From positions 25,364 to 89,363 of the forward strand of contig CAWAHQ010000002.1 of the NCBI GenBank assembly GCA_963781925.1: a stretch of DNA of 64,000 bases. Reading direction: 5' to 3'. Made by a program: the position numbers and the translations under genes. The notes under the pieces were generated by a model, which was given only the letters and a program-made list of their open reading frames with translations, had not been told where the DNA came from and ran no database searches. Source of the DNA: an uncultured bacterium (GTDB lineage Bacteria > Babelota > Babeliae > Babelales > Vermiphilaceae). Each line of letters begins with the position of its first letter. Position 1 is the stretch's first letter. Below are positions 14,619-16,202 of this stretch, one piece after another.

Positions 14619-16202
14619 TCAAACTTTTTTCATCTCATCAGGTACTTTAATTCCCATATTCTCCAAAATAAATGGCGCAACATCTGCCAACCCCTGCAAG
14701 GGCAATTCTCCATCCTTCACTCCTTTCGAAGCCTTGCGTAAGCCCTCTGAAGCTTTATGCGAAAGAGGGTTGATCATCAAGAACGGTACAGGATTGCTCG
14801 TATGCGCAGTACGCGGCTGCTTGGTAACTTCATCAAACATATCCTCTGCCTTGCCATGATCAGCAGTGATATATAATGTTCCATTCATTTTTTCCACGAT
14901 TTCTTCATATAAAATACCTAACTGGGTATCAAGAAACTCTACTGCTTTAATGGTTGCTCCAAAGTTTCCTGAATGGCCAACCATATCTGCATTGGCATAA
15001 TTGATAAGATAAAAATCTGCAGGGCTAGACTGCAGTGACGCAATCACTGCTTGGGTAATTTCAGATGCACGCATTTCTGGCCTAGCTGCATAGCTTTGCA
15101 GATCCATTGAATGAATAAGTTTACGCGTTTCTGTTACAACAGGCTCTTCCTTTTCCCCTCGGAAAAAATAAGTTACGTGAGCATATTTTTCTGTTTCTGC
15201 TATAGAAAAAATAGTTTTATGATGTGCTGCCAAAATATCTTTCAGAGTATTGCCAATAACAGGACGAGGAAATAATGGAATGGTAGCAAGATGAATATCA
15301 TATGAAACTGGTGTAATAAAGAAAGTCAAATTAAGCGGTTTAATAACAAAATGAGCAAACTCATTTTGCACAAAACACTCTGCTAATTCCCGTGCACGAT
15401 CGGGGCGAACATTGCAGAAAATGATACCATCGCCGTTATGCACTATCGCTGAACTATCCAATTGCGTCGGTGGAATAAATTCATCAGTAATGTTGTGTGC
15501 ATAATTGCGCTCAAGAACTTTTTCCCAGGAGAAAAACGGTCCTGGCCCAGTCATCCTGAGCCTGTCGAAGGATTCAGTTAGAACGCGATAACTTTTTTCA
15601 ATACGATCCCAATTATTATCACGATCCATCGCATAAAAACGTCCGTGCAATGATCCAATGATTATTCGCCCATGATTATATTGACGAATGAGTTGCATGA
15701 GATGCATAAGGTACTCATGCGCTGATTGTGGCGGGACGTCTCGACCGTCTAAAATCGGATGCACCACTATTTTTTTGATTCCTGCCTTAATGGCCGCATC
15801 GATCACTGCATATATCTCCTTTTCATGCGCATGAATTCCCGCATCAGAAAGTAATCCAATAATATGCAAAGCCCCACCTACGCTATGTAACCTTTCAAGC
15901 TGCGTTGTTAAAACGTGGTTATGAGCAAATGAATGATCAGCGATTGCCTCCAGCCATATTTTCATTGGTTGATCTATAACGCGTCCGGCACCGATAGTTA
16001 AATGCCCAACTTCAGAGTTGCCAATCATATTATCAGGCAACCCCACAGCAGAACCAGATGCACGCAGCAAGGCATGAGGATATTTCTGCCACCACGCATT
16101 AAAATGAGGCATATAAGCATGTGCAATTGCGTTGTATTTTTTTTCTGCACGGTATCCAAAACCATCAAGAATAATCAGTGCCGCTGGATGAATTTTTTTC
16201 AT
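14619..16202 (-). CDS. gpmI: 2,3-bisphosphoglycerate-independent phosphoglycerate mutase; carries two repeat-derived in-frame segments
   Basis: LIILDGFG, GNSEVGHLTIGAGR, DGRD, ADHGKAE. Length 527 aa. Confidence 0.9.
   Translation of the reverse strand: MKKIHPAALIILDGFGYRAEKKYNAIAHAYMPHFNAWWQKYPHALLRASGSAVGLPDNMIGNSEVGHLTIGAGRVIDQPMKIWLEAIADHSFAHNHVLTTQLERLHSVGGALHIIGLLSDAGIHAHEKEIYAVIDAAIKAGIKKIVVHPILDGRDVPPQSAHEYLMHLMQLIRQYNHGRIIIGSLHGRFYAMDRDNNWDRIEKSYRVLTESFDRLRMTGPGPFFSWEKVLERNYAHNITDEFIPPTQLDSSAIVHNGDGIIFCNVRPDRARELAECFVQNEFAHFVIKPLNLTFFITPVSYDIHLATIPLFPRPVIGNTLKDILAAHHKTIFSIAETEKYAHVTYFFRGEKEEPVVTETRKLIHSMDLQSYAARPEMRASEITQAVIASLQSSPADFYLINYANADMVGHSGNFGATIKAVEFLDTQLGILYEEIVEKMNGTLYITADHGKAEDMFDEVTKQPRTAHTSNPVPFLMINPLSHKASEGLRKASKGVKDGELPLQGLADVAPFILENMGIKVPDEMKKV
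14727..14769. repeat. Repeat module inside gpmI (encodes PLSHKASEGLRKAS)
   Basis: CGAAGCCTTGCGTAAGCCCTCTGAAGCTTTATGCGAAAGAGGG is about 80% identical by eye to intergenic 11605-11648. Confidence 0.6.
15551..15573. repeat. Family-1 arm inside gpmI (encodes SFDRLRMT)
   Basis: TCATCCTGAGCCTGTCGAAGGAT compared with 6381-6402 TCATCCTGAGCTTGTCGAAGGA (21/22). Confidence 0.7.

Follow-up and report, generated by a model that had tools for sequence, protein, structure and literature searches.

The gene for cofactor-independent phosphoglycerate mutase (iPGM) of an uncultured member of the Babeliales (Dependentiae) raises the question of how pieces of DNA that are repeated in intergenic spacers could come to be read in frame within a conserved enzyme gene, and whether the enzyme withstands them. 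The gene, gpmI, lies in a stretch of 64,000 nucleotides that was analysed as a whole and is referred to here as the window. The first-pass annotation of this stretch had proposed that gpmI contains two different repeat modules in frame. This was confirmed, as the gene carries two repeat-derived in-frame segments, which add 7 and 14 residues to its product. The gene, the two segments and their related intergenic copies are the following:

14619..16202, minus strand: gpmI, the host gene, an ORF of 527 aa
15552..15572, minus strand: site 1, a 7-codon in-frame insert (SFDRLRM, residues 211-217) corresponding to one family-1 hairpin unit
14727..14768, minus strand: site 2, a 14-codon in-frame insert (PLSHKASEGLRKAS, residues 479-492)
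6376..6402, plus strand: intergenic copy most similar to site 1, a family-1 variant unit (family D6), 24/27 identical to site 1
11605..11648, plus strand: site 2 module in an intergenic position, with a GNAT gene on one side and a PP2C gene on the other

The two segments and their repeat families

On the gene strand, the sequence TCATCCTGAGCCTGTCGAAGGAT at 15551-15573 encodes SFDRLRMT (residues 211-218), as had been read initially, and the likeness of site 1 to the repeat copies spans 15546-15573. When up to 3 mismatches were allowed, site 1 had 10 matches in the window, with none expected from shuffled sequence. The best of them, at 6381-6402, is identical in 21 of 22 positions (BLAST E = 3.5e-5 in a within-window search), again as first reported, and the 6376..6402 unit sits within a GC-rich mosaic of 92 nt (6343-6434). 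Reading of the sequence gives a stem-loop, ATCCTGAG / CTTGT / CGAAGGAT, with 8 stem positions (6 Watson-Crick pairs plus a tandem G.A/A.G mismatch) and a 5-nt loop, and four of the six frames of the unit are stop-free. Family-1 units also build larger elements in the window:

14475..14541, plus strand: full family-1 palindrome, two head-to-head units, 78 nt downstream of the gpmI stop codon; RNA fold of -43.4 kcal/mol (z = -7.9)
10644-10712, 33999-34066 and 48273-48341: further full family-1 palindromes within the window
21907..22075, plus strand: composite element in which a mosaic of about 130 nt, made of other modules, is enclosed by family-1 units that act as its terminal inverted repeats

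The 43-mer of site 2 (14727-14769) was likewise found as described. It has no second copy in the window at up to 3 mismatches, and its resemblance to 11605-11648, put at about 80% by eye, amounts to 36 identical columns out of 44 in a gapped local alignment with a score of 45, against a best score of 23.0 +/- 1.9 (maximum 28) for 100 shuffled queries run over the whole window. A degenerate pattern of the site 2 hairpin has three copies in the window (14744-14768, 11621-11645 and 10087-10111), where 0.01 would be expected. The segment consists of a 28-nt hairpin, CCCTCT-TTCGCATAAAGCTTC-AGAGGG (approximately 14743-14769), with a 6-bp stem, a 15-nt loop and no tag, and of a neighbouring piece, GCTTACGCAAGGCTTCG, which is part of a second module; five of the six frames of the hairpin are free of stops by reading. 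Sites 1 and 2 belong to separate sequence families, as proposed, although both are short hairpins, and the reference copies of both (6381-6402 and 11605-11648) occupy intergenic spacers. The nucleotide likeness to these copies proved significant for both segments once computed. That the similarities arose by chance, or that the segments are an assembly artefact, has a negligible probability: nothing was found in favour, chance is ruled out by the shuffle, alignment and pattern statistics, and an artefact is contradicted by the presence of the identical gpmI gene in an independent Logan assembly, and of a site 2 insert of the type carried by orthologue P0004 in two independent metagenomes, L084 (ENA) and L117 (JGI).

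Orthologue loops and integrity of the enzyme

Alignment with orthologues established that both segments are insertions and that the two loops differ from those of repeat-free relatives. Site 1 falls, as had been claimed, in a variable loop immediately past the conserved DRDNNWDRIEKSYRVLTE block, where 85 of 120 Babeliales iPGM orthologues have the modal length. The in-frame gain proposed for this site was upheld, whereas its size was corrected from 8 to 7 codons by the orthologue alignment. Site 2 is a gain of 14 codons relative to a 51-sequence alignment and lengthens the loop immediately ahead of the LADVAPFIL block, in agreement with the earlier reading; the insert is missing from 118 of the 120 orthologues. 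A codon alignment with the nearest relatives displays clean in-frame gains at both sites. The site 1 loops of orthologues hold other frames or orientations of the repeats (LRQAQDE, SFDKLRM, SFAKAS), and in one of them, P0027, a second module is nested within a site 1 unit. HPELVEG and HPEPVEG are found in an orthologue loop near residue 280, and a repeat-derived peptide, PPTSLKLRRTG, at the N-terminus of orthologues. In a search of contigs with the iPGM alignment, the matches listed were for the most part to distant relatives such as Legionella, and no close Babeliales DNA was among them.

The gpmI product contains iPGM_N and Metalloenzyme domains (Pfam E = 1e-59 and 9e-59), matches the PDB sequences 5vpu and 1ejj (E of about 1e-113 to 1e-115) and, when its AlphaFold model (pLDDT 86.5) is compared with these structures by Foldseek, gives TM scores of 0.86-0.89, indicating the iPGM fold. 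Residues D13, S63, R154, D155, R188, R194, R266, R269, K339, D406, H410, D448, H449 and H467 are unchanged throughout the 51-sequence alignment, and H124 is likewise found in the iPGM of the window. The roles of the catalytic serine, the metal ligands and the substrate-binding arginines of iPGM we take to be those assigned in the 1EJJ literature. In the model, pLDDT drops below 50 only at residues 191-193, 216-220 and 487-493, two of these three segments being at site 1 (216-220) and site 2 (487-493). The retention of these residues and the confident model indicate that the enzyme is intact despite the inserts, both of which would be located at the protein surface, as suggested by low model confidence and by the variable length of the loops.

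We therefore consider it quite likely that both segments are interspersed repeats, GC-rich hairpins of the REP type, that landed in gpmI and were kept, most likely as neutral passengers (selfish DNA). Short REP-type hairpin repeats are scattered through the intergenic spacers of this genome and those of its relatives, and in the proposed sequence of events copies of them, possibly mobilised by a trans-acting enzyme, would land within gpmI. Such copies would be kept because their lengths (21 and 42 nt) are multiples of three, because the frame in use is free of stop codons and because the recipient loops vary in length among orthologues and contain none of the catalytic residues. The inserts would then be translated, presumably without harm, as 7 and 14 additional loop residues. 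Counting against this reading, the window yielded no transposase for either gpmI insert, nor any sign of a target-site duplication or an excision footprint.

Repeat pieces in other genes of the window

The suggestion that in-frame tolerance is systematic in this genome was borne out by related pieces in TruA, FtsZ and probably a ValRS-like protein, in addition to the repeat peptides of the orthologue loops:

10085..10112, plus strand: site 2-type hairpin in truA (9777-10568), in frame and in the opposite orientation, encoding APSEALREGR
20562..20643, minus strand: repeat-derived SSFAKASSSAKATADMTADAAP (family D13) in the C-terminal linker of ftsZ (20485-21813)
36665..36710, plus strand: family-1 unit in frame in the ValRS-like gene (35249-37753), encoding SAHPELVEGSSATNPF, residues 473-488

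In TruA the insert (AAPSEALREGR) amounts to 11 residues when compared with three orthologues, and in ftsZ two members of family D13 are recognised within the insert (20598-20624 and 20616-20642). The repeat stretch of the ValRS-like gene, which includes SAHPELVEG, is probably an insert as well, given that the one ValRS compared, that of Thermus thermophilus (1gax), has 19 residues fewer at this position.

A further candidate, RNase HII (4246-5010), has a repeat module overlapping its C-terminal tail, but was dropped because it is no longer than in relatives. The glycosyltransferase gene at 44525-45781 has two candidate repeat-like stretches whose similarity scores are not significant. The tetranucleotides GTAG or CTAC occur in some other modules of the window, for example at 41089-41116.

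Distribution beyond the Babeliales

The repeat elements also occur outside this genome. The site 2 hairpin is present in at least 120 metagenome stretches, 80 of which were analysed, yielding 82 occurrences in 73 distinct contexts with a GC content of 32-58%. The 5' half-stem CCCTCC, which had not been part of the search, is kept at each position in 65-69 of the 73 contexts. Fourteen of the 82 occurrences are within long ORFs, including those of GatB, PheT and a Nudix gene, and the hairpin is in frame in GatB of Patescibacteria. Extra residues are present at one beta-turn of GatB in 58 of 120 sequences, and in the contig L209 the GatB insert is bordered by a 9-nt direct repeat, CTACAACCT. The hairpin was not found in GenBank phages, PLSDB plasmids or IMG/VR. 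The core of site 1 is present in proteobacterial megaplasmids as well as in 74 IMG/VR stretches, the latter with a GC content of 31-72%.

In some contigs the site 2 hairpin adjoins tRNA genes, which would be in line with the segments being mini-introns that are removed at the RNA level and never reach the protein. We regard this as highly improbable, as the inserts compared with orthologues (gpmI, truA and GatB) are all multiples of three and every intragenic copy examined is stop-free in the frame of its gene, two properties that removal before translation does not need and that count against it. We know of no splicing signals for such hairpins in bacteria. Rfam searches returned a single tRNA for the window at the gathering threshold, nothing meaningful at a permissive threshold for approximately 11330-11840, and only tRNAs for 12 hairpin-bearing loci.

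The inserts could instead have been put to use, with the peptides modifying iPGM (partner binding, localisation) or with the mRNA hairpins tuning translation or transcript stability. Such a role would agree with the CCTCC/GGAGG-like stem of site 2, which resembles an anti-Shine-Dalgarno/Shine-Dalgarno pair, with the frequent location of the Patescibacteria intergenic copies immediately 5' of a ribosome-binding site, and with the conservation of the site 2 insert in two lineages. It nevertheless appears very unlikely, because the inserts are missing from most orthologues, the same loops hold unrelated peptides read from other frames or orientations of the same DNA, and model confidence is lowest at the inserts. 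Moreover, the predicted folds of the in-gene copies are not significantly more stable than those of shuffled sequence, with z-scores of -0.7 and -1.6. This lends no support to a structural role within the mRNA, and it also counts against the reading as REP-type hairpins.

Dependentiae and Patescibacteria share small genomes and host dependence. As a tentative proposal, which we see as possible but hold with more doubt than belief, the site 2 hairpin, (G)CCCTCC-TTCGCRTAAAGCTTC-GGAGGG(C), would represent an undescribed, near-invariant element of both groups with two roles. Between genes, often 5' of ribosome-binding sites or beside tRNA genes, it would act as a signal in RNA or DNA, and in essential enzymes it would be an insert in loops or beta-turns. 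Its arrival at identical codons in non-sister lineages would then reflect active, target-selective insertion or frequent transfer between lineages, with no known transposase.

Inserts shared by non-sister lineages

The site 2 insert is shared by the orthologues P0001 and P0004, which are not sisters. In the iPGM tree, P0001 groups with P0002 and P0003 (bootstrap 99%) and P0004 with P0010 (89%), while a grouping of P0001 with P0004 receives 0%; a neighbouring gene concurs (64-65% identity versus 51%). The insertion codon is identical between these non-sister lineages, and the two inserts share 44 of 45 nt, in genes that are 72.6% identical overall. The two inserts agree at 14 of 15 third codon positions, compared with 52% for the genes as a whole (p = 8e-4), and the identity falls to the gene-wide level right outside the insert. 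The sisters P0010, P0041, P0002 and P0003 have clean consensus loops. Since non-sisters share insertion sites, and since site 2 is preserved at 44/45 nt in genes of 73% identity, the alignments favour recurrent insertion or lateral spread over inheritance, although selection on the nucleotide sequence could also account for the near-identity. Identical codons in non-sisters are awkward for purely random insertion, and a target preference or lateral transfer would be needed. Insertion sites rich in A, for instance ATCAA|AAAGG, give a first hint of a possible target motif.

The same observations bear on the possibility that the inserts did not arise separately. Short recombination patches could have carried them from one Babeliales lineage to another, the lineages perhaps having protist hosts in common, or gene conversion could have copied them into gpmI from a repeat at an ectopic position, so that a shared site would be a transferred segment of a filled allele. 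The common codon and the 44/45 match speak for this, as does the general identity of 94-98% of repeat modules between genomes whose proteins share only about 75-80%. Nevertheless, the abrupt drop in identity at the insert edge means that the transferred patch would have to match the element exactly, and flanks that are about 73% identical are poor substrates for homologous recombination; we therefore judge this course of events unlikely.

Alternatively, the inserts may be old, that is, ancestral to the clade, precisely lost in most descendants and left nearly unchanged by selection on the hairpin at the DNA or RNA level. The near-invariance of the hairpin over its 73 contexts, CCCTCC positions included, would fit such an origin, and so would the stem variant CCCTCT/AGAGGG common to the window and P0004. 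This scenario, which we find quite unlikely, requires several exact deletions restoring the consensus loop, given the clean loops of the four sisters. It is further at odds with the identity of only 82% to the paralogous copy that this genome has at 11605, and with the in-gene hairpins not being unusually stable. The landing of REP-type hairpins in gpmI, whether through recurrent separate insertions or through lateral spread, is accordingly the reading that we would retain for both inserts.

Comparison with known repeat systems

Searches of the literature for the repeat peptides and nucleotide strings found nothing, and two key genome papers on TM6 do not mention interspersed repeats. The nearest known parallels are the intragenic CGTC-type REPs (Di Nocera, De Gregorio, Rocco 2013, PMC3733652). 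CGTC-tagged REPs are short, chiefly extragenic hairpins, which include RPE-4 and RPE-6 of Rickettsia conorii, and their intragenic copies add 7-9 residues to housekeeping genes in R. conorii and sphingomonads. An example is VIPAKAGI in the R. conorii phosphomannomutase, and tRNA pseudouridine synthases are hit too. No transposase is known for them, and the phyla reported to carry them do not include Dependentiae or Patescibacteria (PMC3733652). By reading, site 1 shares with these elements a stem of 8 positions starting A-T, T-A and a 5-nt loop (CTTGT), within the published description of a stem of 8-9 bp starting A-T/T-A and a loop of 4-5 nt, and it may also have a tag of the form [C/G]TC. 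Of 86 site 1 copies in viral contigs, 73 have T directly before CATCC and 76 have G or C one base further out, giving [G/C]TC. In contrast, the stem sequence of site 1 differs and holds the tandem G.A/A.G mismatch, and the tag in the window units is AGTC or GCTC instead of CGTC, TGTC or CCTC (AGTC was read in site 1, GCTC in family 1 and GATC in the 6376 copy). CGTC REPs mostly have a CCA tail, unlike the window units (TCA, GA or CAA); in the viral-contig copies of site 1 the tail is mostly T/C followed by G/C. The repeat peptides match none of the intragenic CGTC REP peptides in the supplement of PMC3733652 (VIPAKAGI, SFPRKRES, VIAGLDPAIH, VIPWLDHGI). Site 1 would therefore appear to fall outside families CGTC-1 to CGTC-4, as judged from the listed peptides, which imply other stems. 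The tagless site 2 hairpin, with its 6-bp stem and 15-nt loop, does not fit the CGTC REP layout.

RPE-1 and its relatives (Ogata et al. 2000, Science 290:347, as summarised in PMC10969869) are palindromes of an obligate intracellular bacterium that occupy many of its conserved but unrelated genes in frame, and they are considered to leave the fold and function of the proteins unharmed (PMC10969869). The gpmI inserts resemble them in being repeated palindromic elements in frame in conserved genes that are not destroyed, but are set apart by description, since an RPE has a length of about 100-150 bp and contributes 30-50 residues, whereas the gpmI inserts have 21 and 42 nt and occur in another phylum. 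RAYT-mobilised REP/BIME/REPIN elements are also imperfect palindromes of 20-40 nt, often in head-to-head dimers and chiefly downstream of genes; neither gpmI segment, however, has GTAG or CTAC, and classical REPs are extragenic. MITEs such as ERIC and Coxiella QMITE1 are non-autonomous repeats able to extend ORFs as in-frame fusions (review PMC10969869), and the family-1 units flank the mosaic core of 21907-22075 as terminal inverted repeats would. The gpmI inserts are single hairpin units with no terminal inverted repeats, and no target-site duplication accompanies the window copies; the GatB insert of L209 has the 9-nt direct repeat given above. Finally, PARCELs (2010, PMC2996958) are coding sequences with dyad symmetry scattered over distant microbes, yet they form tandem 25-residue domains in surface proteins and not single hairpins in enzyme loops.

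Implications

The gpmI case is a fresh example of selfish DNA inside genes, of a kind known from Rickettsia. It identifies the iPGM loops and the GatB beta-turn as natural insertion-tolerant sites, and offers annotators an origin for odd low-complexity peptides (SFDKLRM, HPELVEG, LRQAQDE, PSHKASEG, SFAKAS) in enzymes of uncultured bacteria. The inserts at identical codons in non-sister lineages provide a concrete test case for the movement of REP-like hairpins.

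Two repeat-derived insertions in gpmI

The cofactor-independent phosphoglycerate mutase (iPGM) gene of the window carries two segments, sites 1 and 2, that are derived from repeats and were gained in frame:

14619-16202, minus strand: gpmI, iPGM of 527 residues (open reading frame; Pfam iPGM_N and Metalloenzyme)
15552-15572, minus strand: site 1 gain, 7 codons (TCC TTC GAC AGG CTC AGG ATG) after E210 (codon alignment)
14727-14768, minus strand: site 2 gain, 14 codons after N478 (codon alignment)

The first-pass annotation had likened the site 1 segment (15551-15573) to a variant arm of family 1, a GC-rich hairpin repeat, at 6381-6402. 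This was confirmed, with 21/22 identical positions and 10 matches in the window at up to 3 mismatches, none being expected. The likeness of site 2 (14727-14769) to 11605-11648, put at about 80% by eye, was computed as 36/44 identical columns with a score of 45, against 23.0 +/- 1.9 (maximum 28) for shuffled queries, and the site 2 hairpin pattern has three window copies versus 0.01 expected. Both reference copies are intergenic.

The alignment with Babeliales orthologues that the annotation had suggested as a check (51, then 120 sequences, 56-80% identical) identified both segments as in-frame insertions. The site 1 loop is at its modal length in 85 of the 120 orthologues and the site 2 segment in 65, with 12-14 extra residues at site 2 only in the window protein and in orthologue P0004. 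Aligned by codon with P0003 (80%) and P0002 (78%), its closest relatives, the gene shows clean gains at both sites, and the inserts have 52% GC versus 41% in the remaining gene. The finding of two repeat-derived segments in gpmI is real, and its first interpretation is supported.

Despite the inserts, the enzyme looks functional, judging from sequence and model. Its catalytic serine is present, as are the residues that bind metal and substrate (roles after the 1EJJ literature), and all but H124 are invariant in the 51-sequence alignment. A database record identical to the protein exists, the nearest named relatives being Candidatus Babeliales (phylum Dependentiae/TM6), and sequence search retrieved the PDB relatives 5vpu and 1ejj (E about 1e-113 to 1e-115). 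The AlphaFold model (mean pLDDT 86.5, pTM 0.87) superposes on solved iPGMs with TM 0.86-0.89, and pLDDT falls below 50 only at residues 191-193, 216-220 (site 1) and 487-493 (site 2). Since solved structures also have gaps at both insert places in the sequence alignment, we infer that both inserts lie in soft, surface-exposed loops.

Structure of the repeat elements

Family 1 occurs as ~70-nt palindromes made of two head-to-head units, site 1 corresponding to one unit:

10644-10712, 14475-14541, 33999-34066 and 48273-48341: family-1 palindromes
21907-22075: ~130-nt mosaic flanked by family-1 units

Read by eye, each unit is a small hairpin, ATCCT-GA-G / CTTGT / C-GA-AGGAT, with [G/C]TC ahead. 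The site 2 element is a separate hairpin, CCCTC[C/T]-TTCGCRTAAAGCTTC-[G/A]GAGGG, with a piece of a second module after it, a two-part layout found also in the 11605 copy. The family-1 copy at 14475-14541 folds as RNA at -43 kcal/mol (z = -7.9); folding of the in-gene copies revealed no unusual RNA stability. Four of six reading frames are open in the site 1 unit and five of six in the site 2 hairpin (by eye), and these mostly open frames help to account for the in-frame tolerance.

A further hairpin at 41067-41238 (64-nt arms, 94% complementary, 44 nt apart) adjoins the tRNA at 41323-41395. Over 56 nt this module shares 96% identity with positions 15076-15131 of relative L083, against only ~78% for the proteins of both genomes.

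In-frame repeats in other genes

The suggestion that in-frame tolerance is systematic was borne out by further genes of the window and by orthologous iPGM loops. In TruA, a hairpin of the site 2 type in opposite orientation accounts for 11 inserted residues, AAPSEALREGR, the FtsZ linker includes a repeat-derived stretch, and a ValRS-like gene encodes SAHPELVEG across a family-1 unit. In orthologous iPGMs, the same repeat DNA occurs in other frames and orientations:

Site 1 loop: peptides SFDKLRM, LRQAQDE and SFAKAS-type
Loop near residue 280: HPELVEG, HPEPVEG, SEALCEGR
N-terminus: PPTSLKLRRTG

In the gpmI of P0027 (L085, 10001-11605), a 57-nt module encoding QPSPRLRQAQSAIASAEAG is nested in the site 1 unit, between GAC and AGG.

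In relative L087 (13094-14128, 5554-6873), repeat modules prolong the truA call by ~80 residues (...SSHPSTRPSPKATEGR...) and MSFDRLRTSG opens the ftsZ call; these stretches are either real extensions or open repeat frames misleading the gene calls. In the window, a MGDG synthase-like glycosyltransferase gene (44525-45781) has two GC-rich repeat-like stretches, 44581-44639 and 45195-45252, encoding RPARRSFSEGERK and TDFFTSAVAEAMADVSAEVL, which may be further in-frame inserts.

Distribution among Babeliales

In the protein tree, the window iPGM joins P0002 and P0003 with 99% bootstrap support, P0004 pairs with P0010 (89%), and no grouping of the window protein with P0004, P0009 or P0027 occurs; a neighbouring gene supports the same grouping. 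The site 2 insert of P0004 nevertheless occupies the identical codon and shares 44/45 nt with the window copy, making it the best-conserved 45-nt stretch of two gpmI genes that are 72.6% identical overall and 52% at third positions. In P0009 and P0027 the site 1 unit is positioned as in the window, whereas the loop of their sisters is the consensus one. Several gains, or lateral spread, are more parsimonious than a single gain and many exact losses afterwards. Across these genomes, repeat modules in general reach 94-98% identity.

Other features of the window were observed. Inverted repeats of ~150 nt (11339-11487 versus 12980-13130, 71-82% complementary) stand on either side of a PP2C phosphatase gene (11836-12834). 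In relatives L082 and L083, gpmI, a GNAT gene and truA are adjacent; the window has ~3.3 kb between the GNAT gene and gpmI, comprising the PP2C cassette, an ankyrin gene and a small ORF, which may be a mobile cargo cassette. Tandem paralogous families lie at 7498-9641, 29053-31039 and 34114-35167: signal-peptide proteins whose 5' ends are similar, a pair of ~330-aa ORFs with long segments 77-83% alike, and adjacent ORFs 34114-34629 and 34592-35167 (171 and 191 aa) sharing 81-94% identical stretches.

Spread beyond Babeliales

The 22-nt site 2 pattern matched at least 120 metagenome stretches. In the 80 loci analysed the pattern occurred 82 times, in 73 distinct contexts (GC 32-58%), and 14 of the 82 copies are inside long ORFs, including PheT, a Nudix hydrolase, a NifS-like protein and GatB (three orthologues, same turn), the GatB carriers being Patescibacteria. 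Extra residues occur at this beta-turn in 58 of 120 GatB relatives, among them PPSHKASEG, PSTGSG and PFDKLRVLSLSKD, the whole palindrome translated. In one patescibacterial GatB (P0135; L209, 2001-3014), the palindrome PFDKLRVLSLSKD has the direct repeat CTACAACCT at either end, a possible target-site duplication. Searches of phage, plasmid and IMG/VR collections did not find the site 2 hairpin.

The exact site 1 core was present in 74 IMG/VR stretches (GC 31-72%); megaplasmids of Novosphingobium, Methylobacterium, Comamonas, Rhizobium and others have it as well, mostly outside annotated genes. For an exact 21-mer, contigs spanning 31% to 72% GC amount to a very broad range of hosts, and the hairpin sequences are nearly invariant across very distant bacteria. 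In some viral contigs the core is in tandem with a 49-nt period (L232, 9720-9838; L252, 1782-1851).

In metagenome loci, a GGAGG ribosome-binding site and start codon often follow the site 2 hairpin at a distance of 5-15 nt (L091, L097, L113, L116, L119, L125, L139, L146, L166 and others). The two halves of the hairpin stem, CCCTCC and GGAGGG, look like an anti-Shine-Dalgarno/Shine-Dalgarno pair, and a role as translational switch is therefore possible. Further copies directly adjoin tRNA genes (L164, L135, L100).

Relation to known palindromic repeats

Rickettsia RPEs are a classic case of in-frame palindromic repeats (PMC10969869). GTAG- and CGTC-tagged REPs were described in eight phyla by Di Nocera et al., who found single intragenic units adding 7-9 residues to housekeeping proteins such as phosphomannomutase and tRNA pseudouridine synthases, and R. 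conorii RPE-4 and RPE-6 were placed in CGTC families (PMC3733652). By eye, the site 1 unit resembles CGTC REPs in layout, with an 8-position stem whose first pairs are A-T and T-A, a loop of 5 nt and a tag-like [G/C]TC (AGTC or GCTC in the window), but lacks the CCA tail and encodes none of the peptides listed for intragenic CGTC REPs. It would therefore work like a CGTC REP, without assignment to CGTC families 1-4. The site 2 hairpin matches no described REP layout.

In summary, the gpmI inserts are intragenic REP/RPE-like hairpin repeats, a kind already known. The literature searched held no description of such repeats in Dependentiae or Patescibacteria and, as far as that literature goes, intragenic REP/RPE-like repeats are new for Dependentiae.
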